This document shows, piece after piece, positions 14,149-31,370 of a stretch of DNA of 64,000 nt. The position numbers and the translations under genes are program-made. Position 1 is the first letter of the stretch. Every line of letters starts with the position of its first letter. The stretch lies in sequence record NZ_CP090789.1. The stretch is one strand, 5' to 3'. The stretch comes from a plasmid. Below the pieces are notes generated by a model, which was not told the origin of the DNA, searched no databases, and was given only the letters and a program-made list of their open reading frames with translations.

Positions 14149-16971
14149 TTAATCACGCACGCCTCGGCCACCCCGTCGATTTTCATTGGACTGCTCGCGC
14201 TCGATTTCACCCACGCCGGCGGCCTTCCGCTGCCGCTGCAGATATTCGGCGCGGGCTGCTGCGCGTTCCGCCGCGCTCATGCCTGCGAACGGCTTCTTGT
14301 TGATTCGCACACGATCTGTCTCGGCGCGGTCGGCGCTCGAATGCCGCATATTTTCGACAATCGCTTCCGCTCGCGCTTGCCCGCTCAGCGCGACCAATGC
14401 CTTCCAGGCACGATCGTCCCGGCTTGCGAGGTAAGCGAGACGACCGCGGATTGCCGGATCGATATGCTCGAGCGCGGACCCTGACCGCTTAAGTTGAGCG
14501 CGCTCCTTCGCCTGCAGCGGCCGGTTATCCGCACGTGCGCGCTGCCGCTTGTCGAGCGCGTCGACGTATTGGTCCACGGCGTTATCGAGCGTCACTGGTT
14601 GTCGGCGAACCGGTGACGATGCGGCGCTCGCGGTCCGTCGAAGAGCGAGGGTATGTCGGTAGCCCCGCTCGGCGCCGAGTTCGGTTTCGGGTCGAACACC
14701 GTAATACGCGCTGAACGACTTTTCATCAACACGCGACAACGCGCGACTCAGCGCAGCGGCATCGGCAAACTCGTCCTTCCCGGACGCAAGTGTCAGCGAT
14801 GTCTTGTGCCGCGTCATTGCAACGTAGGCGAGCTCCGCATGCAGACTCTTGGTCGCCAGGATGTACGCACGATCGACAGTCATGCCCTGGCTCTTGTGGA
14901 TCGTCAGCGCGTAGCCGTAGTCGATTTCGCCATACGTCGCAGAGTCGATCGAAATGCTGCGACCGTTATCGAGGCGCACGTGTAGGATCGACCCGGGCTT
15001 CGAGCTTTGCTCTCGAGCCTCGATCCGCTCGATGGTTCCAAGCGAGCCGTTCTTTACGTCGATATCGTAGTCGTTCCGGAGGAACATGATCCGCTCGCCG
15101 GCCGCCAGCATCATGGTACGCGAGTGCTGGCTCTCAGCCTGGTCACTACCATCGACGCGCTCGACCAGCTGAACCGCGTGGTCGCTGCCAAGTTCCCCGC
15201 GCGCACGAAGGGCCGAGCGGATCGCGGTGTTGAGCCCGTCACGTTGAGCATTTGTGTGCGTCAACAAGATCTGCGAATCGCCACGGTATGCGTCCCGGTC
15301 TGCCATGAATTGTGCGACGAGCATGTCGCGCGCAGCAGCGAGCGATTCGAACAATTGGACCGATCCACGTTCCGCATAGGCCGACACCGCGGCCGGAATT
15401 TCATGCCTAGACAATGCCTCGGATGCCTGACGTTGCCAGTCTTCCTTCTGGCGCTTGATCTCGGTTAGGCTCGACAGCGCATTCACGGCTTCGGCCTTCT
15501 TGCTGACGGCGCGGAACGCGTCGCCGGCGTCAACCGCATGCAGCTGATATGCGTCGCCGACCATTCTAATGCGGGCATTGGCCCTTTCGATGTGACCGAG
15601 CAGCTTCTCCATTTGCCGAGAACCGACCATCCCGGCCTCATCGACGAAGACCACCGTTCGCTCGTCAAGTATTAAGCTCCCGCGATCCAGAGAGCCGAGC
15701 AGGCTGTGCAGCGTCCGACTTTGAATGCCGGCATCGCGCTCCATGTCGTCAGCGGTTTTCCCTTGGAGAGCCGCGCCGAGGACGCGGAAGCCATCGGATT
15801 CCAGCGCTTCTCGTGCGGCCTTGAGGACGTAGCTCTTCCCCGTCCCGGCCGCGCCGTTCACGACGACAAACTGCCGATCTGATACGAGAAGAGAAAACGC
15901 CGCATCTTGGCCGGCATTGAAGTTTCGCGAGATCCGCAGAACGTCGTGACGAGCCATGGTCCCGGATCGCGTCGGGACGTTGGAGAGACGCTCGGCGCGT
16001 GCAACGAGCCGATCCTCAAGTTCCTGAAGCTCGCCGGAAGTAAACCAGTCGCCTTCTTTGCCGGGGACGCTCAGCGCGATCAACTCTTTCGAGTTCATCA
16101 TGCGAGCATAAACTTGGCGGAATTGCTCTTCTCCGTCAGTGTTGCGGAAAACGAATTGCTCGACGTCGCGACGCGAGAATATCGACTTGGTCGCCGTTAA
16201 CGCGTGCACACCAATCGACGGATTGATCAGAAGACGTTTGCCGTTGCGTTCGGCCCGCGCGCGATTCTCGGCCAGCACGTTTTCCATTACGCCCCGTTCA
16301 CCGGCGTAGCGGGCGACACCAACCTTGAGCGAAGGCTCAAGTTCGATACCGAGCGTCTTGTAACTCCGATGGTCGATGCGAGCCTCGATGCCGTGTCGTG
16401 CCATGAAGTGATTTGCGGTCACCGCCCATTCCTCGCGGACGTCGACCACGAACTGTCTGCTGCTCAGATAGCGGTCTTTGCCAGCCCCGCCTTTCTCAGG
16501 ATGCTCGCGATTCCAGCGACGAAAGAACTGCTCGGGATCTCGTGGAATCCCGTCGTTCACGCGCTCCGTAAACATGATGTGGGCGTGAGGCTGTTCCAGA
16601 CCATCGCTCGCAGCGGGGTTGTGGATTGCCCAAGAATAGGCGTGGCGTTCACCGAGCGTGTTCTGGACAAACTCCCGAACCAATTCGACGCGCTGCTCAT
16701 CGTTCAATTCGCGCGGGATGGAAACCTCGATCTCGCGGTACGGACGACCGTTGACTCGCTCGTACTGATCGGCAGCTTGCCAGAAAGCGCTCGGATCATG
16801 CTCGGCCCATGCCGGCATGTTTCCGCTCTCAGACATCTTCAGATCGCCGCGTTCCTCGTATCGCCCACCACGCGAGATATAGGCGTAGTGATCCTCACGT
16901 GCGATGTACTTGGCATGCTCGCCTGCCTTGGCAGCTTTGCCTGGTTTGACGCTGAGGTGGTAGGTCGACAC
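14149..16971 (-). CDS. traA: MobQ-family relaxase fused to RecD-like helicase (Ti-plasmid TraA-like)
   Basis: N-terminus MSTYHLSVKPGK...HAKYIAREDHY matches the MobA/MobL relaxase signature (Tyr near N-terminus, HxH block HAHIMF); central Walker A GAAGTGKS helicase. Confidence 0.9.
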   Translation of the reverse strand: MSTYHLSVKPGKAAKAGEHAKYIAREDHYAYISRGGRYEERGDLKMSESGNMPAWAEHDPSAFWQAADQYERVNGRPYREIEVSIPRELNDEQRVELVREFVQNTLGERHAYSWAIHNPAASDGLEQPHAHIMFTERVNDGIPRDPEQFFRRWNREHPEKGGAGKDRYLSSRQFVVDVREEWAVTANHFMARHGIEARIDHRSYKTLGIELEPSLKVGVARYAGERGVMENVLAENRARAERNGKRLLINPSIGVHALTATKSIFSRRDVEQFVFRNTDGEEQFRQVYARMMNSKELIALSVPGKEGDWFTSGELQELEDRLVARAERLSNVPTRSGTMARHDVLRISRNFNAGQDAAFSLLVSDRQFVVVNGAAGTGKSYVLKAAREALESDGFRVLGAALQGKTADDMERDAGIQSRTLHSLLGSLDRGSLILDERTVVFVDEAGMVGSRQMEKLLGHIERANARIRMVGDAYQLHAVDAGDAFRAVSKKAEAVNALSSLTEIKRQKEDWQRQASEALSRHEIPAAVSAYAERGSVQLFESLAAARDMLVAQFMADRDAYRGDSQILLTHTNAQRDGLNTAIRSALRARGELGSDHAVQLVERVDGSDQAESQHSRTMMLAAGERIMFLRNDYDIDVKNGSLGTIERIEAREQSSKPGSILHVRLDNGRSISIDSATYGEIDYGYALTIHKSQGMTVDRAYILATKSLHAELAYVAMTRHKTSLTLASGKDEFADAAALSRALSRVDEKSFSAYYGVRPETELGAERGYRHTLALRRTASAASSPVRRQPVTLDNAVDQYVDALDKRQRARADNRPLQAKERAQLKRSGSALEHIDPAIRGRLAYLASRDDRAWKALVALSGQARAEAIVENMRHSSADRAETDRVRINKKPFAGMSAAERAAARAEYLQRQRKAAGVGEIEREQSNENRRGGRGVRD

Positions 16972-16994
16972 GGGAACCGGGTTGAGCGCTGTTT

Positions 16995-17040
16995 TCGGGT
17001 TGTTTCTATGCTAGCATAGAAACGCGTAAGCGCGCGTTGT
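16995..17040 (+). promoter_or_regulatory. oriT: origin of transfer (oriT), MobQ/RSF1010-like: 22-bp perfect inverted repeat plus nic-core
   Basis: GTTTCTATGCTAGCATAGAAAC followed by GCGTAAGCGCGCG; compare RSF1010 GTTTCTCGAAGAGAAACCGGTAAGTGCGCCCT; located directly upstream of the relaxase gene. Confidence 0.7.
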
Positions 17041-17286
17041 ACTTCCCTGTAGACACGGGTTTTTGCGAGCTCCCTAGAGACCTGCGGTTTTGGGGTTTCA
17101 GATCGTGAAATGGGGTTGGATCGCTGGCGCGACGTCGGTATCGTCGGGAGGTGTGTGGTCTCGACGGTGCTGCATCAGGTCCAGTCCTCCATACGGGAGG
17201 GCTGGACTGCGGGCAGTAGCACATCGGACGATTTAGGTGCGGCTGCTGCGGAGTCGAATTCGTTTTTTTTGGGTGAGGTAGAACCT

Positions 17287-17721
17287 ATGTCACGTCCCGA
17301 ATGGTTGGCGGTTCGGTTGCAGTTCATCAAGGGTCTGAATTCTCCGACCGAAGCACAGCGGCTGCTCGTTGAATTGGCTGAGCGGCCCGAACTCGACAAG
17401 TCTGACGCGCGGGTGCTCGACCAGTTGATGCGGATGGAACGTATCAACATGAAGGCCGATGAGGCGAAGGCGGAGACGGAAAAGCTTCTGCGCGCGCGCC
17501 GTCTTGAACAAGATAGGGCGCGCGCGAAGGCACACGCGGAGTTGGGTGCTGTGGTGGCGGGAGTCGGATTTCCGCTGGAGCGGGACTTGTTGGCGGGCGT
17601 GCTGCTCGAAGCGCTCGAACGCCTCAAGGCCGACCCGGCGTTGCGCACGGGTTGGAGTTCGCGCGGCGTGGCACAGGCGAAGCCAAGCGATGCGGAGGAG
17701 AAAAAGGCCGACGCGGCCTAA
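17287..17721 (+). CDS. traD: TraD-like conjugal transfer accessory protein
   Basis: Divergent from relaxase across oriT; C-terminal ELGAVVAGVGFPLERDLLAGVLLEAL resembles the rhizobial TraD motif ELGGLIVKAGL...ALLLGAL; RBS GAGGTAG. Confidence 0.5.
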   Translation: MSRPEWLAVRLQFIKGLNSPTEAQRLLVELAERPELDKSDARVLDQLMRMERINMKADEAKAETEKLLRARRLEQDRARAKAHAELGAVVAGVGFPLERDLLAGVLLEALERLKADPALRTGWSSRGVAQAKPSDAEEKKADAA

Positions 17722-17778
17722 GCCGGGTCGGCCCTGCATTGCTTCTTCGGTGGCCCGGTCTAACGGGCCACCGTGTCG

Positions 17779-19770
17779 TTACTGACCGTCCGGTGCGTCT
17801 GCTGCTTCCGCCTCACGCGTCGGGTGTTCGATCGGGAAAGTCGATTCCCGATTCGTCAGCACATCTGGAAGCCATCCCGATTCAACCAGTTGCATTTCGG
17901 CCGCTGCGGCGGCATCTCCCTTCTTCATCGAACCCAGCGGCATTGCGGCCGTCGCCGAAACCGCCTGTGCCATTACATCGACGATGCGCTGTTTCGACAC
18001 GTGGTTGAGGTAACTCGTCTGCGTCGGCTTCCAGTAGCGCACCATGTCCACGTCGAGCACGTCGGCCAGCGTGTTGACGGCGTGCGGCTTGTTCTCCCGC
18101 GCGATTCCGTTGACCATCGCCGCAACGCAGAAGGCAAACAGGCCCGACAGAGTGTCGTCTGTCGCTTCCAGCAGCCACGGCAGCAAGTGGCGCAGTTCGT
18201 TCGGCATCGTTGCCGCCCATTTCGTGCGCTCGGCGTCGATGATCCGCCATGCCGTACTGTCGGTCATGTCATCCGCAACGCTGGAGAGTTGGTCCAGACT
18301 CGGCCGGAAAGTCGCTTCGAGCGCGTGGTATTCGCGCCAATGATCGTCAAACTGTTCCTCGAACACGTCAGGAATCATCGTGTACAAGAGGTAGGCCATC
18401 GCCACGTCCGGGCGCTTCGCAAGCTCCGCCTGCACAGCAGCAGTGCGATGAGCAGTCAGCCGAACGCAGAGAGTTTCGCTGTGGACGGGGCGGGCTTTCG
18501 TCGTCCGCTCGGCCTGCTCGCCGTGCTGACCACCGGAAACAGCGGCGGCGACTTCCTGCGGTTTGACAACGCCGCGCCTGACTTCAAGTTCGCCATTTGC
18601 GTCGATCCAGACTTGCGCGCCAGCACCGGCTTTTTGCTCGTCGGTCCATACCTCACAACGTTCTTCGAACGCGTCCAGCGCTGCCTGAGCGTCGCGCACG
18701 GCTTGATGGAGCACGTCGCCGTCGGCGTCCGAATCTTCCGTATCGTAGTGCGCGTCGAGCGCAGCATCCGCACTCTGGCACGCCTGTTCCAGCTTGCGAT
18801 GTTCCGCTTTCTCCTTCTTCGTCAGTTCGCGGCGCTCCGGGTCCAACTGGCGCACACGCATCGCCATGAGCGCCTCTCGTCGTACTGCCGCGTCCACCCA
18901 CGCCCAACCCTCGGCGCGCACTTCCTCGGCGGCGGCCGTCAGCTTTTCCACGGCAAGGCGGTTTAGCAATTCGAGGTCGGCCACAAATCCGCCGTTTCCG
19001 TCGCCGCTGAACAGGTCGCGTCGCACATATCCGCCCGCGTCCTCGTAGGCGTCGAGGCCGATGAATCGCGCGAGGGAATTCGTGGCCGCATTCACTTCGG
19101 CTTTGGTGATGACCGCCCGAATCTCGCGGGGGCTGCGCTGCCACTCCTGAATCGATTCGAACCAAATCCGCTCTTGTTGTTCGGTGTCGTCGGACAGTGC
19201 GAGCGCGCACGCCTGCTCGTAATCCATCCCGTCATCACGAAACACTTCTAGCAGCTTCGGCGAAATGTTCGCCAGCTTCAATGCGCGACGGACAACCGTT
19301 TCTGACACGGAAAACCGAGCGGCAATGTCGGGAATTGATCGGCCCTCCGCAATGAGTTCGCGGAACGCGACGCACTGGTCGGCGATGTGCATCCCTTCGC
19401 GCTGGACGTTCTCCGCAAGCGAGATCGCCAGCGCTTCGCCGGCGGAGACGATCAGCACGGGCACGAGATCCGTATCCGACCAGCGGCCTCGGGATTTCAG
19501 GAGGTCCAGTCCGCCCAAGCGGCCTTGGCCGGCGCAGATTCCGAACGGACGAAGGCCGTTCCTTTGTCCATCTTCATCGATCGGATGCCCTACGAGGTTT
19601 TGCAGCAAGCCGTTAGCGTCGATGTCGTCAGCAAGCGCGGGGATGTTCTTGGCGGGCTTCTTCCGCACGTTGCGGGGTGACACGCACAGCTGGCCAAATG
19701 GGATGTAGTTGATTTTCCCGAACGTGTACGGGACGGGGTTGGCGAGGATCGTATCTGCTACTTGGTTCAC
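17779..19770 (-). CDS. ParB-like nuclease-domain protein (664 aa)
   Basis: ParB/Srx N-domain (IPALADDIDANGLLQNLVGHPIDEDG), HTH region, long acidic C-terminal extension; start at GTG 19770 preceded by GGAGAAAAACC. Confidence 0.8.
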   Translation of the reverse strand: MNQVADTILANPVPYTFGKINYIPFGQLCVSPRNVRKKPAKNIPALADDIDANGLLQNLVGHPIDEDGQRNGLRPFGICAGQGRLGGLDLLKSRGRWSDTDLVPVLIVSAGEALAISLAENVQREGMHIADQCVAFRELIAEGRSIPDIAARFSVSETVVRRALKLANISPKLLEVFRDDGMDYEQACALALSDDTEQQERIWFESIQEWQRSPREIRAVITKAEVNAATNSLARFIGLDAYEDAGGYVRRDLFSGDGNGGFVADLELLNRLAVEKLTAAAEEVRAEGWAWVDAAVRREALMAMRVRQLDPERRELTKKEKAEHRKLEQACQSADAALDAHYDTEDSDADGDVLHQAVRDAQAALDAFEERCEVWTDEQKAGAGAQVWIDANGELEVRRGVVKPQEVAAAVSGGQHGEQAERTTKARPVHSETLCVRLTAHRTAAVQAELAKRPDVAMAYLLYTMIPDVFEEQFDDHWREYHALEATFRPSLDQLSSVADDMTDSTAWRIIDAERTKWAATMPNELRHLLPWLLEATDDTLSGLFAFCVAAMVNGIARENKPHAVNTLADVLDVDMVRYWKPTQTSYLNHVSKQRIVDVMAQAVSATAAMPLGSMKKGDAAAAAEMQLVESGWLPDVLTNRESTFPIEHPTREAEAADAPDGQ

Positions 19771-19981
19771 GGTTTTTCTCCGGTTATCGCCTACAGCACA
19801 CCGCCGAGGCATAAAATAATTATAGGACGAAACGTCCTTATAGTGTCGGATTTAAATAAAACCCACAAACCTTTATCGGGTATTCATATTATTTTGCGTA
19901 TAGGGACGAAACGTCCTATAATTACAACCATGCCCTAGCGATTCCGCCGTGGGCGATAACCGGAGAAAAACCGTGAATCAA
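19762..19981. promoter_or_regulatory. divergent promoter/operator region: 30-nt inverted repeat arms (19762-19791 and 19952-19981) flanking two palindromic operators
   Basis: Arms GGCGATAACCGGAGAAAAACCGTGAA(C/T)CAAG carry the RBS and start codon of both divergent genes; operators GGACGAAACGTCC at 19822-19844 and 19900-19920, each overlapping a TATAAT -10. Confidence 0.6.
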
Positions 19982-20392
19982 GTTGAACTGGAAGTGAAGC
20001 GTTACGAGTGGCCCGATCATCAGCGCGCGGCCTTCTTCCCGCATTATCTGAAGCGTCGAGCGGCATGTGCGCAATTGGCCGTCGTGCGCTGGGCCAAAAT
20101 TCTGTTCCCGGCCTATACGACGTCCGGCTGGCACTTTTATGGGCTGGAATCCAAGGGCTTCTATGTCGCTCCGCTGCTGCTGAAGGACGAACAAATCGAA
20201 GTCGGTGGCCACCGCATGAGCGCCGATGCGTTCGGCGTACTGGTTACGCTGGCGGCTCTGGAGGAAATGGGGGAGTCGGAACTGTTCACCGCGTTGCATG
20301 GCTTTGCTTGCCTTCACGATGAGGCACGGGCAATTCTCGGCGGCGGTGAGATCGCCCGCGACGAGATGATTTCGGCAGAAATTCCGTTCTAA
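19973..20392 (+). CDS. ArdB/KlcA-like antirestriction protein candidate (140 aa)
   Basis: Size, and a GWHFYGLESKGFYVAP motif remembered as ArdB/KlcA-like (unverified); position in leading region; GTG start with RBS GGAGAAAAA. Confidence 0.4.
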   Translation: MNQVELEVKRYEWPDHQRAAFFPHYLKRRAACAQLAVVRWAKILFPAYTTSGWHFYGLESKGFYVAPLLLKDEQIEVGGHRMSADAFGVLVTLAALEEMGESELFTALHGFACLHDEARAILGGGEIARDEMISAEIPF

Positions 20393-20433
20393 CGACATGA
20401 GGCAACCCGGCGGAAACGCCGGGCTAAGGCACA

Positions 20434-20637
20434 ATGATCTATTCGATTAGCGAAGTAGAGGCCGCGATCAACATCTGGCGGAACCGGCTCGAATCTGGCG
20501 ACGATGCGGCGCTGTGCGCCCCGGCGCGTGCGCTGGCCGAGCCGTACGGGCTGATGGTGTATGAAGGTCGCGAAACGATCAGCGATCATGAGATGACGGC
20601 GAAGGCTCGCGAAGCAATGGCTGTGCTCGTTGCCTGA
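20434..20637 (+). CDS. small conserved hypothetical protein (DUF3717-like)
   Basis: 67-aa ORF with good codon bias; family call is from memory only. Confidence 0.4.
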   Translation: MIYSISEVEAAINIWRNRLESGDDAALCAPARALAEPYGLMVYEGRETISDHEMTAKAREAMAVLVA

Positions 20638-20955
20638 CGCCGCCTGCGCGACGAGTGCAGCGCGGATACCCGCGATAGACCCTGTGCTTGCCGCGGGCGA
20701 GGGGAGACCCTCCCTCCTGCAAGCCGGGGTTTTGTTGCTCGACCAGGTGTCGCGCGCGCCGCGCGCCCGGATCGAGGCGCACGGGTGCCCCGCGCCCGCG
20801 TAGGCGGGCGCAAGGGAGAGCGCCGGCCCGCCGCAACGCGGCGGGACGATCCGGCTCAGCCTTCGATTATCGGCATGGGGTAGTCAAGCGGCCGTGAGGC
20901 CGCGTGTTTCCTCCGCGGCGAAGCCGTGGGGGCTGGATATGGGATGGACTGAAAA

Positions 20956-21231
20956 ATGACGCAAGATCTACGGGCCACTGTGCGGCCCGAATGTTTGCAA
21001 CCGGCGCGACTGTGGATGGAACCGACGGCGGGTGAAATCCGCCTGGTGCTCGATCGCTGCGGATTCACGCGACGAAACGCAAGCATTTTCCTCGGCATCG
21101 AAGAGACCGGCCGAAGCGTGGGCCGCTGGCTCAGCGGGGAGCACTCGATTCCCTATTCGGCCTGGGCGCTGCTTTGCGCCCGGGCCGGTCTCGGAAACAT
21201 ATGGGAAGAGGGCGGCACCGACGCGTCGTAG
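20956..21231 (+). CDS. small HTH (XRE-like) regulator
   Basis: Predicted helix-turn-helix FTRRNASIFLGIEETGRSVGRWLSG. Confidence 0.4.
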   Translation: MTQDLRATVRPECLQPARLWMEPTAGEIRLVLDRCGFTRRNASIFLGIEETGRSVGRWLSGEHSIPYSAWALLCARAGLGNIWEEGGTDAS

Positions 21232-21366
21232 CGTCGGCTCCGCCCGCGGCTTCTATACCTTCATGTTCGCGTGAGAGGGTTTGTTTTCGATCGCGCCGGC
21301 GCCGATCAGGTCACCGGCCTGGTCGGCGCCGGCGCGATCGAATTACGAGGACGGTGATGCCGGCCT

Positions 21367-21543
21367 TCAAACGCGGCCGCGGAACATTTGGCCGGCGCGG
21401 AAGGCTGCACGCATCGCGTGTTCGATATCGGAAATGCGAACCTCCTCCGGCGTGTACTCCGGAATTTCGCGGTCAATGATCGGATGGCCAAAGGTTGATT
21501 CGGCGATTGCGTTCAACACAGCGTCAACAAGGTAGCGTTCCAT
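21367..21543 (-). CDS. small hypothetical protein (58 aa) downstream of the methyltransferase
   Basis: Manually translated MERYLVDAVLNAIAESTFGHPIIDREIPEYTPEEVRISDIEHAMRAAFRAGQMFRGRV; high GC3; below the 60-aa ORF-track cutoff. Confidence 0.3.
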   Translation of the reverse strand: MERYLVDAVLNAIAESTFGHPIIDREIPEYTPEEVRISDIEHAMRAAFRAGQMFRGRV

Positions 21544-21591
21544 GGTATGTCCAGTTCGGTGGCCCGCGGCGCTTGGCGCCGCAGGCAGTTT

Positions 21592-22236
21592 TTAGGCAGC
21601 GATGGCGAGGCGGTCGATCTCTAGCCGGTCGCAAGCAGCGGCGTAGTAGGTCGGATCGAGCTCGATGCCGATGTAGTAGCGGCCGAGCTCGCGCGCGGCA
21701 ACGCATGTCGAGCCCGACCCAGCGAACGGATCAAGGACGACGTCGCCAGGGGCCGTGTACGTCTCGATGAGTCGCTTGAGGCACGGAACCGGCTTCTGCG
21801 TGGGATGGTGCCGATTGCCGGAATATTCCCAGCGCATCACGTCAGGCAGCGGCGTAGCCGGCACAGCCGGCTGGCCCTTCGCGAGCACGTACGCGGATTC
21901 GTGGCGGTACGCGACAAAGCGCGATTTCGACGCATAGGACTTCGCGAAAACGATGTGGCCGACGACGCGCAGGCCCGCGCGCTTCCACGCGTCGAAAAAG
22001 CGGTCCGTTTTCGTCCAGCCGTAGAAGCTCACGCAAAGCGTGTTCGGCTTCATGACGCGGTACACCTCCGCGAATGCCGGCGCCAGCCAGTCCGATTTCA
22101 CATCGTTTGCGATCGAGCGCCCGGAGCGATCGTGATAGTTGACGAGATAGGGCGGGTCAGTCAGGACGAAGTCGACCACGCCGTCCGGAATGGACGGCAA
22201 CACTTCCAGGCAGTCGCCGTTATAGAGAAAGCTCAT
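21592..22236 (-). CDS. orphan DNA methyltransferase (N4-C/N6-A family, DPPY motif)
   Basis: VLTDPPYLVNY catalytic motif and FAGSGSTCVAA SAM-binding motif (PF01555-type); no adjacent restriction endonuclease. Confidence 0.85.
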   Translation of the reverse strand: MSFLYNGDCLEVLPSIPDGVVDFVLTDPPYLVNYHDRSGRSIANDVKSDWLAPAFAEVYRVMKPNTLCVSFYGWTKTDRFFDAWKRAGLRVVGHIVFAKSYASKSRFVAYRHESAYVLAKGQPAVPATPLPDVMRWEYSGNRHHPTQKPVPCLKRLIETYTAPGDVVLDPFAGSGSTCVAARELGRYYIGIELDPTYYAAACDRLEIDRLAIAA

Positions 22237-22707
22237 GTATGCGCTCCACAGTTGGGGGGCGGATAGCGCGTTTCCGTGTGCGGCTCCGAAATGTCGCTAC
22301 CCGGCGCTTGCGAGCGCCGCGCAGGGGTTGCCGGTCAAGGGACCGTGGAATAACGGGGAGGCAGTCCGTAGGAGGGCACCGTTTATGCCGCGAAAGCCCT
22401 TGAAAGAGTGGGCGCGCGCCGGAGCGTGCGGGCCCGTTCTGGCCGGCGAAACCAGCGCGGCGATCGTTTGCGACGGGTAGCGACATCCATTTAGAACCCC
22501 GGGCGCTTTATCTCCTTTCGGGCGTGGTTAGAGCCACTAGCCGAGGCCTGGAGGGGGAGGTTCGGCGTGCGGTTACTCATGAGGGCGGGCCTCGGTTTAT
22601 GGGCCGCCCGATCTGGAGTGCGCCGCGCGCCCGGAAGGGGATAGGCTGCGGGCTGTGACCATCGTCGATGCTCAGGAACAGGCCCCGGCATGGCCGGGGC
22701 TTCGAAA

Positions 22708-24682
22708 TTACGCCGTCAGGATCATCAGCGCGGTATTGACGGAGCTTGCAGACTCGGCGAACGTATCGGCCGGCAGGTCCACCCACTCTCCACCGTGGGC
22801 CGCCACGAGACGCTGAAGCGCTTCACGCCGGCGCGGACCATTCGCGCAGACCGCCACGAGTCGGCCACCTGGCTTGAGCATCTCGAGCGCATGCCGAATA
22901 TGCCGAATGTCATCGCCGTGCGAGAACGGTGGGTTCATGACGATCCGGTCGAATGGTGTCGGCGCCACGTACGTGAGGAAATCCGTGTTGATCACGTCGG
23001 CGCCGGCCTCGCTGACGCGCAGGTGATCGCACAGGCGGGCGCTGATCTCGACGGCGGTCCGCACCGCAGCGCCACCCGTCGCCTCGCGGATCGCGCGCAG
23101 GATCCGGCCGGTGCCGGCACTCGGTTCGAGAACGGTATGTCCCGGCTCGATCGCGGCCAGCTCGACCATGCGCGCAGCGAGTGATACGGGCGTGGGGAAC
23201 AGCTGCGAGGCGCTCACGACCTGCACCCCATGCTTCAGCTGCTCACGCATTGCATTGAACTGCGCGCCGTCGTCGCCGGCGGCCGCGTGCTCAGTCGTCG
23301 AGCCGTTCGTCGGAACGGTGGTCACATCGCTCGGGCGCTCGACGGATGCGGCTGCCGTGAGATCCGGCGCGGCGAGCTCATCCGTGTTTCCAGCCGGCGA
23401 GATTGCCGGCGGGTTGACGCGTTTAACGTCGGTCAGGTAGACCGCCACCAATGCACCGCGGTGGACCACCGAACGCACGCGGTGCCGGCCGACCGCGCTA
23501 GCGACGTCCGCTGCGCCCTTGATGTCCGGCCGATACCTGCCCGGTCGAACGGCGCCGGCGCCGAGCTCGCGCGAACCCTTGTAGTCGCGATGCGTGGCGT
23601 CCCATTCGGCCTTGGTCATTGCGTGAAAGCCGGTACCGGGGTAGTTGCAAAGGGGCGGCAGCTTGCTTGCTGCCTTCACCGTGGCCGCCACTTCGGCGGA
23701 CGGAGCGCGGTAGTCCTTGATTTCTTCGATGCCCCGTACCGGCACGAATCGCGCGTTGGTGGTCACGCTGCAGATTGCGCCGGCGGAGCGATTCACGCGC
23801 GTCACCACAAGCCACTCGCCGCGTACGAGTACCTGGCCCCCGGGCACGATGTCGAAACCATCGGCCTTGATGCCGCCTTGTTCCGCGAGCATCGCGCGCT
23901 CGTAGTTCAGTCGGCAATCGTAATGCGCAATCCAGCGTTCCCAATGTGCGCGATTACGTCCTTCACGCTCGAGGTACTGGTCACAGGTCGCGCGGAAGTT
24001 ATCGGGGTCCGCGTTGATTGCGCTCCAAAGGCCGTGCAGACTCGACGCCGAAGCCACCATGAGGGCACGCTCTGCGGTCAGCGTCGGCGATCGCAGCGCA
24101 TCAGCTGCAGCCTTCAGGAGATCGAGGCTACGCGTGCACTTGCGGCGGTCGGCCTCGATGCGCTTAATCCGACGATGGCGGACGTCCGCACGCTCCTTGT
24201 ATTTCGCGTGTTGCAGCGCCCCCGCTGCGCGGCGCTCCCAATATTCGTGGGTGTCCCACATCGAGACCGCTTTGCGCATGGCGTTGTCGATGCGCTCCGC
24301 ATCGCGTCGCGCGCGGGCTTCGCTGTGGTGACCGACCAGGATCGGCTGACCGAGTGGGATATGCTCGGTGATCGATGTGACGACGGCATGCGCGGCCTTC
24401 GCGTCCGCCGCGCGCCGTTCGCTATAACCATCGAATCGGTCGGCACGCTCTTCCGCGCGTTCGACGAGCGACGTGTCCTCGTCGTCGATTTCGCCGCACA
24501 GCTCGATGAGAAGATCTTCGCGGGCCGGCGTCCAGCTCGGCGCGACGAACAGATCCTGTTTCGGCGCGAACCGGAACCCGGCATCGTGAACACGTCGATA
24601 CAGGCCTTCCTCGAGGCGCGCGGTGCTGTACAGACGCAGCTTGTTGTCGTCGGGGGAATAGGTTGCCGTCAGGTGTTGCATG
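22708..24682 (-). CDS. DUF3560-domain protein fused to C-terminal N6-adenine DNA methyltransferase
   Basis: N-terminus ATYSPDDNKLRLYSTARL...FAPKQDLFVAPSWTPAREDLL typical of DUF3560; C-terminus VLEPSAGTGRIL...NPPF methyltransferase motifs; RBS GGAG before ATG 24682. Confidence 0.8.
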
Positions 24683-24702
24683 TGTGCTCCAGGTTGGTTT
24701 TT

Positions 24703-25190
24703 GCTGACCGGGACCCAAGATTCTGAGTCCCCGCGTATTGGGTTCTGTCGAGTCGGCGTGCTGCGCTTCGCAGCTGCCGCCGGTCCCCTTAGTTCGTCGT
24801 CCCGCGAACGGACGAGCGCCGGCCGGCGCCGGGTCAAGGGATCACGCGCGGGGTGGGGCGGGAGGGAGCGCAGCGCACGACACGGCCTCGCGCGCCTTGA
24901 CGCGGCAAAGGCCGGCGCTACGGTCGCGGAACTAGGACGACGAGCTCAGGGGACGGGAAGGTCGGTAGCGGCCGCATGCCGATGAGGCAGAACGCCGCGC
25001 GCGGCGAGCGCGCTATCTGAGGCGCGAAGCGGCTCAGGTGGACATGGGGTGGCCAGCGCCGGGGCGTGCTGCGGGACGCAGCTCGGCCCCTAGAGCGTGG
25101 TGGGGTATCCGGGCCGCGGAGAAAGCGGCTCGCGTGGCAAAGCGATCACGTCGGTTTGGTGCGCGAGCCGGCGCGGCTCGGCTCGATCCG
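24703..25190. repeat. about 488-bp direct repeat copy 1 (5' leader of the DUF3560-MTase gene)
   Basis: About 95% identical to 27985-28473; ends about 20 nt before the start codon of the minus-strand gene. Confidence 0.85.
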
Positions 25191-25208
25191 GTTGCTCCGG
25201 GCCATGAG

Positions 25209-25232
25209 AAAAGGGGCTTTCGCCCCTTCCCT
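25209..25232 (-). terminator. rho-independent terminator (GGGGCGAAAGCCCCTTTTCT on the minus strand)
   Basis: 7-bp GC stem, 4-nt loop, T-run on the minus strand; immediately after the 36-aa ORF. Confidence 0.6.
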
Positions 25233-25342
25233 TACCGCAGCACCACGCACATGCGCCGTGGTGTCCACCAGACCAGAAGCGCGTATTCATTGCTGAAAAA
25301 CTCCGCGTTGTCGTGGTCGATGTAGATCACTGGATCGATCAT
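25232..25342 (-). CDS. small 36-aa ORF with strong RBS (candidate leader or small peptide)
   Basis: AAAGGAGATGACC-ATG; MIDPVIYIDHDNAEFFSNEYALLVWWTPRRMCVVLR; preceded by hairpin 25362-25383 and followed by terminator. Confidence 0.3.
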   Translation of the reverse strand: MIDPVIYIDHDNAEFFSNEYALLVWWTPRRMCVVLR

Positions 25343-25552
25343 GGTCATCTCCTTTAAATGTGGGACCGCGAACATGCGGTCCCATCTTTATTTATGCGTG
25401 CACGCCGAATCGGCGCAAAAAATCCGGGCCGCCGACAACTACCCGAACTCGACCGGCCGCGCCGGTGCTGCGCAAGCCATGCCTCGGCAGTTCTTGCCGC
25501 CGCTAAGGCGACCGGTCTGTCTGCCCACCGGGGCACGTGTCCTCTGCCTCCA

Positions 25553-27382
25553 TCACGAGTCGAAGGCAAACTCGAAGGTGGTTTGCGCCCCAGCCGTCGT
25601 AGCCTTGTGCGCCCAGGCATGCCGCGCGTTGTCCGGCAGGTCACCAAAGCGCACCCCTTGCTGGACCAGCTGCTCGGCGTTGTGCCCGAGATTTAGGCCG
25701 AGCCGGTCCTTGAAGTCGGTGCGTCGCGCCACCTCATCGTGCTTGAGCTGCTGCTTGTGGGAAAGCGTCAGCGCGCCGTAGCTCAGATACCACCGATAGC
25801 CGGCCGTGATTCCGCCGGGATGAAAACCGCGATCGTGCATGTCGGCCAGTCGATCGGCCTCGAATTCCAGGATCATCTCGGCCGACTCGACATCGACGTC
25901 GAATCGCGTGCCCGTCCGAACCTCCCATGTGCTCTTGCCGTCACCGAGATCCATGACTGTCGGCGCGCAGGGCGAGCGCTCGGTCAATGCTTCGAACAGC
26001 GGGTCACGAAAGCCCGTCCACTGATCCGCTGTTTCGTCCCATTCAGTGCCGACCTTCAGGAAAAGTGGTTCCGGCAACGGTGCCGGCGCGACCGGCGTGA
26101 TTTCCGGAACGGAATAGCTCATGCCACGCTCGCAGATGTCGCGGTAGTCTGCCCAGATCGCGAAGGGCGCCGCGAGTCCCTGCAGGGACTGCATCGCGTC
26201 GACGGCGATCATCATCGGTAACGGTAACGTCTGGAATTTCGGGCGCGTCCCGGCGCGCCGCGCGCGGATCCTCTCCTCTCGATCGATTGTCAGCATGTAC
26301 CGGACGAGCTCGCGGACGGTCGCGGCGCCGAACGTATCGGGCTCGAGGCAGATGTACCCTTCTCGGATCGTGCGACCGACCCAGTTGCGGCGCGACCAGT
26401 CGTAGCGGATTGCGCGGATGAATCGATTCAGCTGCTGCAGACCGCGCGCATAGGCGTAACGATCTCCGTCGAATCGGATCATCTCGGCAAGCGACCGATC
26501 ATCGGCTTGCTGGCAGGTCCAGCAGCCGGTGCGTGCATCGCAATGTCCGCGGCGCACGCGCTTGCCGGCGGACGCCTCCTCGAAGGTGAGATCCGACACG
26601 ATCGCGCAGCTGCTGTTACCGGCATGCGCGTAGATCCGCTTCGTCTCATCGAAATCCGTGTAGCTGTCGCGCAGACCGGACGATACTTCGCCAATGAACT
26701 CCCAGACGTCTTCGGTCGACCAGCCCGCAATCGGGCAGAGCGTGAGCTCCCCGTCACTGTTGCGGACCGGCGTATCCGCGCGATCGCCGCGCGCGGTCAT
26801 CTTCGCTTTGCGCCGCTCGCTCTCTTCGAACCGTGTGCCGAGCAATACGACCGGCTCGGCATAACCGGCCTTCCGTGCCTCGCGGTACAGCTGGTTGCGG
26901 CCGACGCGGCTCGGCTCGATTTTCAACGAAACCGAGCAGTCGGAGTTCGTGCCAGCGTAGCTTGGCAGGGCGCGGCCGGTCAGCACAGCCAGCTGCCAAG
27001 ACGTCGCAAGCGACGGCGCCACAACCTGCACGCGGACGTCGAAGCCGTGCTCGCGACCGAACGCCCCCATCTTCTCGAGCTCACGCAGTGCATGCTCGAC
27101 CATTTCAGGCGACTCCACCAGGGTGTCAGCCGTGATCACGCAGACGAGCGGCCGGCCGCCGGCGGCCGCGTGCAGGCGGGCGGCATCAAGCGCGAGACTG
27201 GTCACGACTCCGCTATCCTTGCCCGCGCTGAATTGGCAAATCACCATTCGGTTGTCGGTGAAAAGCGCCCCCAGCGCTTCGATCGCGCGCGCAACGCGCT
27301 GGTCGAGAGAGGGGCGCATTTCGGCCTGCAGGAACATTTCGACCGTTTCCATCGAATTCAGCCGAAATACCAGACGTTGCAC
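25553..27382 (-). CDS. PP-loop PAPS-reductase-family protein (DndC/IbrA/BrxP-like) with Cys cluster
   Basis: ICQFSAGKDSGVV PP-loop ATP-pyrophosphatase motif; CDARTGCWTCQ Cys cluster; 609 aa; alternative start ATG 27352. Confidence 0.75.
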   Translation of the reverse strand: MQRLVFRLNSMETVEMFLQAEMRPSLDQRVARAIEALGALFTDNRMVICQFSAGKDSGVVTSLALDAARLHAAAGGRPLVCVITADTLVESPEMVEHALRELEKMGAFGREHGFDVRVQVVAPSLATSWQLAVLTGRALPSYAGTNSDCSVSLKIEPSRVGRNQLYREARKAGYAEPVVLLGTRFEESERRKAKMTARGDRADTPVRNSDGELTLCPIAGWSTEDVWEFIGEVSSGLRDSYTDFDETKRIYAHAGNSSCAIVSDLTFEEASAGKRVRRGHCDARTGCWTCQQADDRSLAEMIRFDGDRYAYARGLQQLNRFIRAIRYDWSRRNWVGRTIREGYICLEPDTFGAATVRELVRYMLTIDREERIRARRAGTRPKFQTLPLPMMIAVDAMQSLQGLAAPFAIWADYRDICERGMSYSVPEITPVAPAPLPEPLFLKVGTEWDETADQWTGFRDPLFEALTERSPCAPTVMDLGDGKSTWEVRTGTRFDVDVESAEMILEFEADRLADMHDRGFHPGGITAGYRWYLSYGALTLSHKQQLKHDEVARRTDFKDRLGLNLGHNAEQLVQQGVRFGDLPDNARHAWAHKATTAGAQTTFEFAFDS

Positions 27383-27948
27383 TGATGGACGGCATCACGC
27401 GTAAAGCTCTCGCGGAGTCCTGGTTCGAGCTCGCTGTTCGCAAGAATCCGTTCGAACAAGTTGAGGATACGGACGCATGCGTCGCCGACGTGCGAATTGG
27501 AATCGCACTCCAAGATCTCGGTGTCGAGCTCGGTCCACAGCGCCGCGTTGATCTTCTGCCGCACAGTGCCTTTCGTCGTCGGCTCGTCTCGTTCCTCTTC
27601 TGGTGGGACCGGGAAACCCGCAGCCGCGAGCTCGCGACGCGCCTGGTCGTCCCATCGAGTCGGCGCTTCGGCGTCGCATCGGAATGCATACCGGATCGCG
27701 GCCTCGCATTCCGGTGTTCCTTCCTCGGTCTCAACCTTCACGGCAACCTCAAAGTAGTTGCCGAAGCCATGCGTGCAGGCCCGGACAATGAATCGTGCTC
27801 CCTGCGGTGGCTCACCCAGCGCCCGCGTAATCACTTTGATGAAGGCGCGACACTCCGCGCGGCTGCGATCTTGATAGTTCTCGTTTCCCAGCTGAACGCA
27901 CGGCTCGTTGGCCGGCGAAGGCCCACAATCAATAATCAGTTTGTACAT
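27358..27948 (-). CDS. hypothetical Cys-containing protein (196 aa), first gene of the operon with the DndC-like gene
   Basis: RBS GAGAGGAAGAGC before ATG; overlaps or abuts the downstream PAPS-reductase-like gene. Confidence 0.55.
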   Translation of the reverse strand: MYKLIIDCGPSPANEPCVQLGNENYQDRSRAECRAFIKVITRALGEPPQGARFIVRACTHGFGNYFEVAVKVETEEGTPECEAAIRYAFRCDAEAPTRWDDQARRELAAAGFPVPPEEERDEPTTKGTVRQKINAALWTELDTEILECDSNSHVGDACVRILNLFERILANSELEPGLRESFTRDAVHQCNVWYFG

Positions 27949-27984
27949 GCTCTTCCTCTCTGGCGTACCGCGCGACGCGGTGTT

Positions 27985-28473
27985 AGCTGCCCGGGCTCCA
28001 AGATTCGGAGTCCCGACGTATTGGGTTCTGTTGAGTCGGCGTGCTGCGCTTCGCAGCTGCCGCCGGTCCCCTTAGTTCGTCGTCCCGCGAACGGACCAGC
28101 GCCGGCCGGCGCCGGGTCAAGGGAACACGCGCGGGGTGGGGCGGGAGGGAGCGCAGCGCACGACACGGCCCCGCGCGCCTTGACGCGGCAAAGGCCGGCG
28201 CTACGGTCGCGGAACTAGGACGACGAGCTCAGGGGACGAGAAGGTCGGTAGCGGCCGCATGCCGATGAGGCAGAACGCCGCGCGCGGCGAGCGCGCTATC
28301 TGAGGCGCGGAGCGGCTCAGGTGGACATGGGGTGGCCAGCGCCGGGGCGGGCTGCGGAACGCAGCGCGGCCCCTAGAGCGTGGTGGGACATCCGGGCCGC
28401 GGAGAAAGCGGCTCGCGTGGCAAATCGATTACGTCGGTTTGGTGCGCGAGCCGTCGCGGTCCGGCTGGATCCA
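27985..28473. repeat. about 488-bp direct repeat copy 2 (5' leader of the 196-aa/DndC-like operon)
   Basis: About 95% identical to 24703-25190; begins about 37 nt upstream of the start codon. Confidence 0.85.
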
Positions 28474-28555
28474 GCTGCGAAAAGAAACTCGCCCCGGTTT
28501 CAGTGCCTAGCTATTTGAGTAAGCGAACCTGATCTGATAGCTTCTTACTCGAGAA

Positions 28556-29002
28556 TTGACCTTCGGCAAATACAAGGGCACGGAAGCTCGAAAACTTCTG
28601 TTCGACGATCCAGCCTACGTCCGCTGGCTTCTAGGAGAATCCGGCGCCTCGGGAGGCATGCTGGCAGCGCAGAAGGAGTTCACGCGACTCATCGCGGCAC
28701 TCGATAAGAAACCGTTTGCCGGCGACTGCGCCGGCGGCTGCAAACAGCCAGCGACCAGGGCGAGTGCGTATGCAAACAGCCCGACACTCTTCTCGTGGTG
28801 CGACGATTGCGATCCGTATTCGAAGGGGGCGCTGGCGGGCAAGTTGCGCATCGTCAGAACGTATGCGGACGCAGAGCGCCACGTCAATTTGACCGCCGAA
28901 GGCCATAGGGCCACGCTCAAAGCAATCATCCGCGAACTGGCAATGGAAAAAGGCATGGCGAAGCGGTTTACGGCATCGGCCCTTGCGGCATTCCTTCCAT
29001 GA
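28556..29002 (+). CDS. hypothetical protein with N-terminal FGKYKG...Y.RWLL motif (DUF3820-like)
   Basis: TTG start; MTFGKYKGTEARKLLFDDPAYVRWLL resembles the 'putative quorum-sensing-regulated virulence factor' family N-terminus (memory-based). Confidence 0.35.
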   Translation: MTFGKYKGTEARKLLFDDPAYVRWLLGESGASGGMLAAQKEFTRLIAALDKKPFAGDCAGGCKQPATRASAYANSPTLFSWCDDCDPYSKGALAGKLRIVRTYADAERHVNLTAEGHRATLKAIIRELAMEKGMAKRFTASALAAFLP

Positions 29003-29204
29003 GACAAGCATAGCGACTAAGCGCTGCTCGCCAGTTTTCTGGCGACCTGAAAACGATTGATGAATACAATTATGTAAAATTATGGATACCTAATCGATTT
29101 GAGTCCCGCCAGCGCCAATGAAATATCGATTCCGCGACACCGCATCGACCGATCGGGTATCCACCTGCGTCGACCGGCCAACGCGACCGTACTAGATTCC
29201 CGTG

Positions 29205-29390
29205 TCAGAGGACCGTCATGCGCCGAGCTTCAAATTGCAGCTTGCTACCGTCCGCAAACACACAGATGTCCACGCACAGTTGCGGAGCCTCTATCGCTAC
29301 AGCGAGGTCACACGCGGTGTCAAATGCTCTGCACACGTCGGCGTCCATGCTGATGCACTCGGCGGTGGTGTATTGCGGTCGGTCCATCAT
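29205..29390 (-). CDS. small Cys-rich hypothetical protein (61 aa)
   Basis: Strong RBS AGGGAAAGG before ATGATG. Confidence 0.3.
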   Translation of the reverse strand: MMDRPQYTTAECISMDADVCRAFDTACDLAVAIEAPQLCVDICVFADGSKLQFEARRMTVL

Positions 29391-29528
29391 CCTTTCCCTG
29401 TTTTCCGGTATCCGTGCGCTTTAGCGGCGGTTGTCGCCTTCGATGATCAGAAGCCTCGCGTTTTCCTTCCAAATTGCATTAACGGCCTCAGCGACTGCTT
29501 CTGACAAAATAATAGTACCGCTGCGGTA

Positions 29529-31333: not shown

Positions 31334-31370
31334 ACGCGGGGGTTGGTGGGGCGGTTATCTCTGTCATATA

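Follow-up and report, generated by a model that had tools for sequence, protein, structure and literature searches.

In the F plasmid, the elements Frpo1 and Frpo2, with a published identity of 92%, each fold on the transferred strand (T-strand) into a hairpin of ~330 nt that rebuilds a -35 and a -10 sequence, and each is needed for early gene expression in transconjugants; in our own comparison, the two are 89% identical over 460 nt and lie ~5 kb apart. The F promoter ssp2 additionally stalls second-strand synthesis, and six single-stranded DNA (ssDNA) promoters in three classes, with mapped start sites, have been described in pESBL (PMC12672017). In the literature that we found, experimental proof of single-stranded promoters is confined to the F and IncI1 plasmids of enterobacteria, and the authors of a study of ssDNA promoters in F stated that the reach of their findings into other plasmid families was not known to them. 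Here, we analyzed a stretch of 64,000 nt from the plasmid record NZ_CP090789.1 (the window, whose positions serve as coordinates throughout). Its source is a conjugative plasmid of the Burkholderia cepacia group of the Rep_3 type, and next to its origin of transfer (oriT) the window holds two ~490-nt noncoding elements that are candidate ssDNA promoters. The explanation that accounts best for the region as a whole, and that we hold to be fairly probable, is an F-type leading region that would enter the recipient + strand first and in which ssDNA hairpin promoters would drive the distal operons.

The comparison with F and the IncI1 plasmids ColIb-P9 and pESBL brings out both likeness and difference. 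Shared are the gene families YfjB/HerB, the 227-amino-acid (aa) M.EcoGIX-type methylase, YdbA-YdcA, and an ArdB-type antirestriction protein, as well as the orientation of genes with the T-strand as template and the presence of dispersed, highly similar repeats of ~460 to 490 nt upstream of operons. As with Frpo, a T-strand hairpin of ~300 to 330 nt rebuilds the -35 and -10 sequences, so that placement, size, and logic are held in common. On the other hand, the elements described here are GC rich (74%) and without detectable sequence similarity to Frpo: nhmmer with a profile of the element family found nothing in the F leading region at E values up to 10, and a covariance model found nothing in F. 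Further differences are that the relaxase is a Ti-type MOBQ enzyme with a VirB-like type IV secretion system (T4SS) rather than MOBF or MOBP, that ssb, psiB, and ardA are absent here while a DndC-like gene is present, that ardB is inverted and served by a palindromic duplex promoter, and that related MOBF plasmids carry up to 14 copies of the element, compared with six promoters of three classes in pESBL. A search of the literature on DUF3560 and on ssDNA promoters in Burkholderia leading regions returned no description of the elements.

The region also resembles the anti-defense islands of plasmid leading regions (Samuel et al. 2024, PMC11541004), in that it adjoins oriT on the side away from the relaxase and combines orphan methyltransferases (MTases) and an antirestriction gene with a strong orientation bias and hairpin promoter candidates. 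It differs from them in that only about three of nine genes have homologues of demonstrated antirestriction role and that the sole classical antirestriction gene lies on the strand that could not be transcribed; DUF3560 and PAPS reductase are absent from the main text of that paper. An earlier note, made from the letters of this DNA, had called the region an anti-defense island, which holds for the two MTases and ArdB, all with antirestriction homologues, and does not extend to TraD (relaxosome) or HerB (a host reprogrammer), while ArdB itself is on the + strand. It was correct in placing the majority of the genes on the minus strand, which holds five of the nine and ~85% of the coding bases, and the predicted T-strand is the template for herB, both MTase genes, the PAPS reductase gene, and orf196, the rule failing for ardB and the DUF3717 gene. 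The claim of an uncommon gene set is not borne out, as four of the genes are homologues of genes in F/IncI1 leading regions and PAPS reductase homologues occur in 2,560 plasmid records.

The elements were discovered by a sliding DNA-fold scan, in which the most stable 120-nt segments cluster in gene-free gaps and the + strand is often 8 to 10 kcal/mol more stable than its complement. Copy A (24705-25195, + strand; -35 TTGACG at 24897-24902 and -10 TACGGT at 24919-24924, both on the 3' arm) and copy B (27988-28478, + strand; -35 TTGACG at 28180-28185 and -10 TACGGT at 28202-28207) are ~96% identical, lie 3.3 kb apart, and each start 25 to 40 nt upstream of a minus-strand start codon. Copy A is a candidate ssDNA promoter for the operon that runs from the DUF3560-MTase gene to the short MTase gene, and copy B is a candidate for the orf196-PAPS reductase operon. 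Positions ~32 to 330 of the element form a giant imperfect hairpin of ~300 nt; for copy B, the predicted energy is -176 kcal/mol on the + strand (z = -7.9) and -153 kcal/mol on the minus strand (z = -6.2). All Rfam families, searched at E values up to 1 over 16000-30000, gave just two chance matches to microRNA hairpins and none to the elements.

In an alignment of 31 copies, 97.4% of the cells of the core hairpin are paired. Double-change cells number 60 in these related copies, against 20 ± 3.5 in shuffles, none of 500 of which reached 60, and the covariation score of 0.195 compares with at most 0.049 for controls with slid partners. T.G wobbles occupy 60 cells, against 8 for A.C, a bias that favors folding of the + strand as DNA over folding of the complementary RNA. 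The 3' arm carries TTGnnn, exactly 16 variable nucleotides, and TAnnnT in 31 of 31 copies; the -35 context CCTTGAC is invariant, TAnnnT is followed by CGCG, and the -10 sequence varies among TACGGT, TACTGT, TACGAT, TATGGT, and TAAGGT. The variable 16-nt spacer stays paired with the opposite arm, while the A at -11 is unpaired in all 31 minimum free energy folds. A -35 sequence is found on both arms and a -10 sequence on the 3' arm only: if the duplex is read toward the genes, the -35 sequence TTGACC is kept, and TAnnnT at a spacing of 15 to 19 nt occurs in 0 of 31 copies. Read from loop to base, the 3' arm is the nontemplate strand for transcription down the 5' arm and into the minus-strand genes, which means that only folding of the single strand turns the hexamers toward those genes. 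The signature CCTTGAC-N17-TA-NNN-TCGCG is present at two places in the window, on the + strand in each case, where chance would be expected to produce none, and the covariance model R1 scores copies A and B at 183 and 178 bits on the + strand and at 39 and 38 bits on the minus strand.

The proposed course of events is as follows: (i) TraA would nick the + strand after 17034, 3' of the inverted repeat of oriT, and pilot the strand into the recipient 5' end first; (ii) the incoming + strand would fold each ~490-nt element into its ~300-nt imperfect hairpin, in which the 3' arm would supply the nontemplate -35 (TTGACG) and -10 (TACGGT, with unpaired A at -11) sequences and the 5' arm the template running into the genes; (iii) host sigma70 RNA polymerase could transcribe the genes of the MTases and of the PP-loop enzyme ahead of second-strand synthesis, which the transcripts from the hairpin promoters may also prime; and (iv) since the duplex lacks a -10 sequence in the gene-ward reading, this expression should stop once the DNA is double stranded. 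herB and the inverted ardB-DUF3717 unit would instead be served by mirrored, operator-bearing TATAAT promoters, probably under a repressor and zygotically induced after duplex formation. With somewhat less assurance than we attach to the scheme as a whole, we think it rather likely that the ~490-nt elements constitute a new, sequence-unrelated class of ssDNA promoter, present in 2 to 14 copies per leading region in conjugative plasmids and Tn4371-like integrative and conjugative elements (ICEs) of Burkholderiaceae and their neighbors. They may also switch direction on second-strand synthesis, with sense transcription from ssDNA giving way to antisense silencing from double-stranded DNA, where the same hexamers face away from the genes.

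Several observations weigh against this interpretation. The gap of 23 kcal/mol between the two strands of copy B is partly a matter of base composition, the shuffled means differing by 17 of the 23, and the copies in the alignment are related, so that the counts of covariation and wobbles are not counts of independent events and overstate their number. TACGGT matches the -10 consensus at three of six positions, though the three are T-12, A-11, and T-7, which are critical; a plain scan for sigma70 and terminator consensus sequences flags neither element, and promoters in that scan are not in excess over shuffles. Similarity to Frpo is absent at the sequence level, and ardB, the best-characterized antirestriction family in the region, is on the wrong strand for early expression. 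We infer the nic site, the transfer polarity, and transcription from ssDNA alike from sequence. Finally, in the duplex, the hexamers form a rightward promoter, an open reading frame (ORF) lies on the + strand at 28556-29002 to the right of copy B, and a terminator-like + strand hairpin of 11 bp (25360-25385) lies ~440 nt to the right of the -10 sequence of copy A; the duplex elements may therefore have some conventional rightward activity.

These last features lead to the strongest competing explanation, that the elements act as duplex DNA or as RNA, either as a rightward promoter (for an antisense or small RNA, or for the ORF at 28556-29002) or as an RNA hairpin for RNase III processing or the insulation of operons. 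TTGACG-16-TACGGT on the + strand is a legitimate rightward duplex promoter, followed at copy B by the ORF and at copy A by the terminator-like hairpin, and the minus-strand version folds significantly as well (z = -6.2). The spacer of that promoter, however, would be untranscribed from its own promoter in either direction and yet covaries with the opposite arm; an RNA complementary to the + strand would hold mismatches, given 60 T.G and 8 A.C cells; copies in MOBF plasmids are flanked on both sides by minus-strand genes only, so that rightward transcripts there would be purely antisense; and the left end of the element is always 22 to 40 nt from a start codon. On this balance, we regard action as duplex or RNA as unlikely and prefer the ssDNA promoter.

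By blastn, the element is present in 243 plasmid records, 217 of them conjugative, always in unannotated DNA and in up to 14 places per record, with hosts in Burkholderia, Paraburkholderia, Pandoraea, Ralstonia, and Mycetohabitans. A core of ~150 nt is also found in Pseudomonas megaplasmids and in a Tn4371-like ICE on IncHI2 plasmids, there upstream of DUF932-parB, and is carried by the Salmonella IncHI2 plasmid NZ_CP080514 (8913-9208) with TTGACG-16-TACGGT intact; the family thus reaches beyond Burkholderiaceae. Orientation is strict: 34 copies in eight loci are all co-oriented, and the copies in pBPSE01 (10 of 10) and in the Paraburkholderia dioscoreae plasmid (14 of 14) all lie, in a single orientation, within the array adjoining mobF/oriT. 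A search with a conserved 20-mer of the 5' arm added 31 stretches in ~15 Burkholderiaceae genomes, and in the nine multicopy contigs that it returned (up to 39 copies) orientation is never mixed. Copies within a plasmid are 96% alike (Pd5 to Pd10 are nearly identical), compared with ~75% between plasmids. In the MOBF relatives, weak or strong family elements lie ~23 to 40 nt upstream of herB, R1 giving weak matches at ~23 nt, while herB of the present plasmid has no ~490-nt element and is preceded by a 224-bp palindrome instead. A supposed third copy in 20640-21590 was rejected, as it amounts to a 33-nt match of 73% that both nhmmer and the covariance model miss, and the family profile and the covariance model gave no matches in F, an IncC plasmid, or a Burkholderia multivorans relative.

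The high identity within plasmids, which suggests recent duplication or gene conversion, and the palindromic body, as in many miniature inverted-repeat transposable elements (MITEs), would also suit selfish or recombinogenic dispersed repeats of the MITE or repetitive extragenic palindromic (REP) kind, devoid of regulation and placed at tolerated insertion sites. We nevertheless give such repeats very little credence: neither target-site duplications nor terminal inverted repeats are seen, the copies are strictly co-oriented and stay within the gene array proximal to oriT, the -35 and -10 sequences are invariant while the spacer is variable but paired, and a fixed distance to the start codon is not expected of passive repeats.

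The same genes recur in other plasmid backbones. Four plasmids with a MOBF relaxase and an F-type T4SS (pBCEN1232, pBPSE01, the J2315/Ptw plasmid, and the P. dioscoreae plasmid) each carry DUF3717, herB, the short MTase, PAPS reductase, and DUF3560 genes, together with DUF932, LPD29, PLD, and others, in an array of 10 to 34 kb just past the block of relaxase, coupling protein, and accessory genes and read entirely toward that block. In the Ptw plasmid, a functional oriT has been mapped experimentally at exactly the junction of array and relaxase block (PMC4853378). The position beside oriT in unrelated MOBF backbones supports a leading-region module whatever the type of relaxase.

The oriT core (17002-17040, + strand) consists of a perfect inverted repeat of 11 + 11 nt, followed by GCG-TAAGCGCG, the predicted nic, and CGTTG. 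The arms, GTTTCTATGCT and AGCATAGAAAC, form a perfect palindrome at 17002-17023, 30 bases from the relaxase start codon; the predicted nic context on the + strand is GCGTAAGCGCG followed by CGTTG, with the cut between 17034 and 17035, so that the strand across the nic may be written as ...CATAGAAACGCGTAAGCGCG/CGTTGTAC. The 17-nt core GAAACNNGTAAGNGCGC occurs once in the window (17019-17035, + strand), and a 40-bp oriT block is unchanged in three plasmids whose flanks have diverged to ~78% identity. In RSF1010, the relaxase substrate is CAGTTTCTCGAAGAGAAACCGGTAAGTGCG/CCCTCCC; its 3' portion remains bound to the enzyme, and nic sites for conjugation are located 3' of the hairpin (PMC4814116). 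The RSF1010 oriT has a known relative in the Ti oriT, which is situated between traA and traCDG (PMC4700958). Shared with RSF1010/R1162 and the Ti oriT are a repeat ending in GAAAC, 3 nt, TAAG-N-GCG, and the nic, with the relaxase gene diverging on the side of the repeat and an accessory gene on the side of the nic. The spacing from arm to nic (GAAAC-3 nt-TAAG-N-GCG) is the same here as in RSF1010, which places the predicted nic after 17034. The MOBQ nic core (NWACCNNTAAGTGCGCCCTYNN) is matched 3' of the inverted repeat at TAAG-GCGC and at about 9 of 13 positions from TAAG onward. The differences from RSF1010 are the downstream half of the site (CGTTG here, CCCTC there), the 11-nt perfect arms, and the relaxase, which is a 940-aa TraA with a RecD-like helicase here and a MobA-primase there.

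As an independent check, we took the RSF1010 oriT as found in an IncQ plasmid and set its orientation by the nicked strand; mobB and repB (mobA frame) lie there to the left on the minus strand and mobC to the right on the plus strand, which is the geometry of traA-oriT-traD in the present plasmid, where the relaxase and accessory genes occupy those sides and strands. The proposal that the inverted repeat and nic core are written on the + strand in the orientation of RSF1010 is thus borne out by sequence, spacing, and gene geometry. Since the hairpin elements are so oriented that they could work only if the + strand is the single strand, they furnish a separate line of evidence for + strand entry, and polarity is supported by three independent lines: the strand of the nic core, the relaxase-oriT-accessory geometry, and the orientation of the elements. 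These agree with the earlier suggestion of rightward + strand entry, on which the + strand is the predicted T-strand, entering from ~17035, and 17035 to ~28500 would be the leading region, with traA, by this polarity, the final gene transferred. The reverse polarity would have the minus strand nicked and the relaxase side entering ahead of the rest, and 17030-28560 would come last as a maintenance and modification island (ParB partition, with MTases and a DndC-like enzyme modifying resident DNA). It draws on a nic site known from sequence prediction, a perfect palindrome that is strand neutral by itself, a partial match to the MOBQ consensus (~9 of 13), and a TraA_Ti score just under cutoff, but it is highly improbable: the TAAG-N-GCGC core is found only on the + strand, 3' of the repeat; the gene geometry does not differ from that of RSF1010; transfer typically brings the relaxase gene in last; the ParB-like protein is homologous to HerB over its full length, is not a partition ParB, and has no parA beside its gene; the MTase family is silent in established plasmids and specific to leading regions; and, next to a MOBF oriT that was mapped by experiment, the same module occupies the leading side.

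The leading region's gene families were assigned with Pfam, NCBIfam, PADLOC, and PHROGs. The first gene, traD (17287-17721, + strand; Pfam PF06412, E = 4e-5, 23.8 bits against a cutoff of 22.3; named traD by PGAP in the relative P1Bm2009), is a Ti-type relaxosome accessory gene with a donor function and stands outside the cargo of the island. It is followed by the gene for a ParB-like HerB/YfjB homologue of 663 aa (17779-19770, minus strand; GTG start at 19770, as PGAP calls it in pINT23), which is 31% identical to YfjB of F over 636 aa (E = 2e-65; residues 23-635 against 38-629) in an alignment that spans the ParB N-terminal domain, the helix-turn-helix (HTH), and domains D3-D4 and conserves the arginine equivalent to R94; it also matches PHROG 7783 (1.5e-86). 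YfjB of F is HerB, a CTP-binding, HTH-bearing ParB-like protein that is zygotically induced from Frpo2 and reprograms host transcription (PMC13370423). By homology, then, the present protein is of the HerB type, a reprogrammer of host expression and not an anti-defense factor, and evidence for the nuclease domain formerly ascribed to it was not found.

The ArdB/KlcA family gene (19973-20392, + strand; Pfam PF03230, E = 7e-10, 39.4 bits against a gathering cutoff of 25) is annotated by PGAP as "antirestriction protein" in relatives, where it is also on the + strand, and its product is 30% identical to the F antirestriction protein; the minus-strand ORF 19922-20434 was rejected as ArdB, the PF03230 match being to the + strand ORF 19973-20392. 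A small DUF3717 protein follows (20434-20637, + strand; Pfam, 2e-21). As ardB, the DUF3717 gene, and traD are on the + strand, incoming ssDNA cannot express them. A possible XRE-family regulator is encoded at ~21016-21231 (+ strand); the ORF has no Pfam match, and its uncertain assignment comes from synteny alone, with a PGAP-annotated XRE gene of pB1701. It is a possible candidate for the repressor of the palindromic operators described below.

The short MTase gene (21592-22236, minus strand) encodes an orphan beta-class N6-adenine MTase of 214 aa with the motif DPPY (Pfam N6_N4_Mtase, 1e-36; NCBIfam PRK13699, 322 bits against a cutoff of 244), 71% identical to an MTase of the J2315 plasmid and 60% identical to the F leading-region methylase. 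Judged by the order of genes counted from ptwA (pBCA060), the J2315 enzyme is probably pBCA072, that is, M.BceJIII. Fomenkov et al. (2020, PMC7736820) showed that M.BceJIII and M.EcoGIX are promiscuous (SAY) N6-methyladenine MTases, specific for single strands, and that they protect plasmids on entry. The present enzyme shares with them its sequence family, leading-region position, and orientation, which make it by homology a member of this single-strand-specific-type family, and the J2315 homologue is the sole MTase of that leading region; it differs in that a structured element without a conserved promoter signature, E2, lies upstream.

The second MTase (22708-24681, minus strand) is a fusion of DUF3560 (Pfam, 7e-37) with a gamma-class N6-adenine MTase domain that matches M.TaqI and has the motifs VLEPSAGTG (motif I) and NPPF (motif IV). 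It is 43 to 46% identical over 89 to 98% of its length to YdbA-YdcA, encoded in at least 5,000 IncF/IncI plasmid records (tblastn). Its true start is the ATG at 24681 rather than 24837, as fixed by copy A, which occupies 24705-25195, and as called by PGAP in pB1701. The PP-loop protein of 609 aa (25553-27382, minus strand; Pfam PAPS_reduct, 1.7e-8) carries the signature SAGKDS, a cysteine cluster C-x6-C-x2-C, and a C-terminal part of ~270 aa of unknown type. The former description as a DndC/PAPS reductase-like enzyme holds insofar as DndC models are its best named matches (PADLOC DndC, 4e-28) and it shares the PP-loop ATP-pyrophosphatase signature and the cysteine cluster. It differs from DndC in its score (NCBIfam TIGR03183, 96 bits against a cutoff of 290), the extra C terminus, a separate plasmid-borne clade, and the lack of partners, as dndA, dndB, dndD, and dndE were not found among the window ORFs examined; the protein is thus by its sequence DndC-like, not DndC. 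A sequence search of the PDB gave no match for it. Of the 2,560 plasmid records that hold a full-length homologue, 2,042 are conjugative; IncHI2, IncC, Pseudomonas megaplasmids, and Burkholderia plasmids are represented, and in an IncC example the homologue stands in a co-oriented array beside a C5 MTase.

The last gene, orf196 (27358-27948, minus strand; 196 aa), overlaps the start of the PAPS reductase gene by 25 nt and is probably translationally coupled to it. It has no significant family match in the four collections, and it is not the LPD29 protein found at the same position in pBCEN1232, to which it shows no similarity. The annotation that the earlier note had called for places ArdB and both MTases in antirestriction-linked families and leaves orf196 without one; anti-defense roles for orf196 and the PP-loop enzyme are guesses from context. 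The ParB-like protein, ArdB, TraD, orf196, and the small ORFs drew no PADLOC match, and Pfam returned nothing for the ORFs 20579-20836, 20856-21098, 20956-21231, 21174-21479, 22220-22486, 22491-22691, and 25038-25325. A gene for a restriction enzyme was not found nearby by Pfam or PADLOC. The ORFs 22220-22486 (88 aa) and 22491-22691 (66 aa) are probably spurious and were rejected as genes, the stretch being conserved, structured noncoding DNA. Judged by homology, the region is a compact F-type leading region, or establishment core (HerB, two MTases, and ArdB), joined by a DndC-like PP-loop enzyme that recurs in Burkholderia plasmids.

Further control elements lie between these genes. A small hairpin (GTCCAGTCCTCC-loop-GGAGGGCTGGAC; 17179-17207) in the divergent control region of traA and traD has an invariant stem and a variable loop among three plasmids. 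Between herB and ardB, a near-perfect 224-bp palindrome (19760-19983) carries mirrored promoters, identical ribosome binding sites (RBSs), and GTG starts, with two operator-like AGGACGAAACGTCCT sites and TATAAT boxes (right arm, TTGCGT-17-TATAAT). Its conservation extends over four plasmids and includes one compensatory change; as a DNA single strand, it folds at -63 kcal/mol (z = -12.4). On the simplest reading, it is probably a pair of repressor-controlled duplex promoters for herB and ardB, and as a + strand ssDNA hairpin it could also drive herB. Element E2 (22237-22707, + strand) is a structured noncoding stretch directly upstream of the short MTase gene, with a ~200-nt hairpin at 22291-22486 whose stem is GGTCAAGGG/CCCTTGAA. 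It is conserved in six of six plasmids examined, both MOBQ and MOBF, with a DNA fold of z = -5.4 on the + strand and -4.4 on the minus strand; its -10 sequence is not conserved, and the covariance model R1 does not detect it.

A hairpin resembling an intrinsic terminator (25207-25226, minus strand; GGGGC-GAAA-GCCCC, then TTTTCT), read from the sequence and not listed by a simple scan, would close the PAPS reductase operon a short way ahead of copy A. An unannotated ORF of 38 aa (MTMIDPVIYIDHDNAEFFSNEYALLVWWTPRRMCVVLR; 25232-25348, minus strand), situated between this terminator-like hairpin and the PAPS reductase gene, is preceded by a strong RBS, AAGGAG, and is present in pINT23 and pB1701, both close relatives, so that its conservation carries little information. 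The terminator-like + strand hairpin at 25360-25385 is located immediately upstream of this ORF. A duplex rightward promoter in copy A would read antisense across this ORF, a layout that resembles type I toxin-antitoxin systems. A very strong hairpin at 21286-21342 (25-nt arms, 96% complementary, with a 7-nt loop) lies between the convergent xre-like and MTase genes, and its sole database match is a chance microRNA in Rfam.

The Rep_3 initiator at 53460-54680 confirms a plasmid replicon. The closest relatives by megablast are pINT23 of Burkholderia pseudomultivorans (89%) and pB1701 of Burkholderia contaminans (93% over the distal half), with a B. multivorans plasmid at 78%. To the left of the leading region lie genes for VirB8, VirB10/TrbI, VirB11, an SLT transglycosylase, a PLD nuclease, a TrwB-type coupling protein, and DUF1173. 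The relaxase (14149-16971, minus strand; 940 aa) has the MobA_MobL nickase (2.8e-30) and RecD-like AAA_30 helicase (1.8e-52) architecture of Ti-type TraA by Pfam, despite a score of 577.4 bits that narrowly misses the cutoff of 590.45 of the TraA_Ti model (NCBIfam TIGR02768). By these family matches, the transfer machinery comprises a VirB-type T4SS, a TrwB-type coupling protein, and a Ti-type (MOBQ) TraA relaxase. Amid the T4SS and coupling protein genes, 6398-8850 and 10334-11764 (+ strand) encode a PLD-family nuclease, a 609-aa protein without a family match, and DUF1173, an order that recurs in the B. multivorans plasmid and in pINT23.

At the far end of the leading region, 30380-36678 encodes on the opposite (+) strand an SRAP peptidase, an ImuA-like ORF, ImuB (a Y-family polymerase), and DnaE2, an error-prone polymerase cassette; the pBPSE01 leading region ends in this same cassette, together with H-NS (33358-40078). 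Beyond it, 37269-40558 (minus strand) holds a PAAR-domain protein, a VRR-NUC-like toxin, and a TsiV immunity protein, a plasmid-borne effector and immunity set of the type VI secretion system, followed by a gene for a PIN-domain toxin, and 44057-47429 (minus strand) holds a tyrosine integrase with DUF3701 and an Abi_C (abortive infection) protein, which may be an integrated element or defense cargo. In the B. multivorans plasmid NZ_CP048463 (11464-21817), ~25 small, co-oriented genes of unknown function have taken the place of herB and of the distal operons, and no copy of the hairpin family is picked up there by nhmmer or by the covariance model; the content of the leading region is thus highly variable behind an invariant oriT.

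To conclude, the family of candidate hairpin promoters is the part of these findings worth following up, and it is probably a new class of a known kind of element. An F-type establishment core of HerB, two MTases, and ArdB is common to MOBF and Ti-type MOBQ backbones in Betaproteobacteria. The family would be a clean natural set of mutations for the study of how sigma70 recognizes hairpin promoters, and, if our interpretation is correct, the orientation of the elements would offer a computational readout of transfer polarity in plasmids whose nic site is not known and would aid the annotation of leading regions. A covariation-supported family abundant in plasmids of Burkholderia, Paraburkholderia, Caballeronia, and Pandoraea, a host group that includes pathogens of cystic fibrosis and melioidosis, would then mean that the strategy of promoters on single-stranded DNA was invented more than once, from different sequences.

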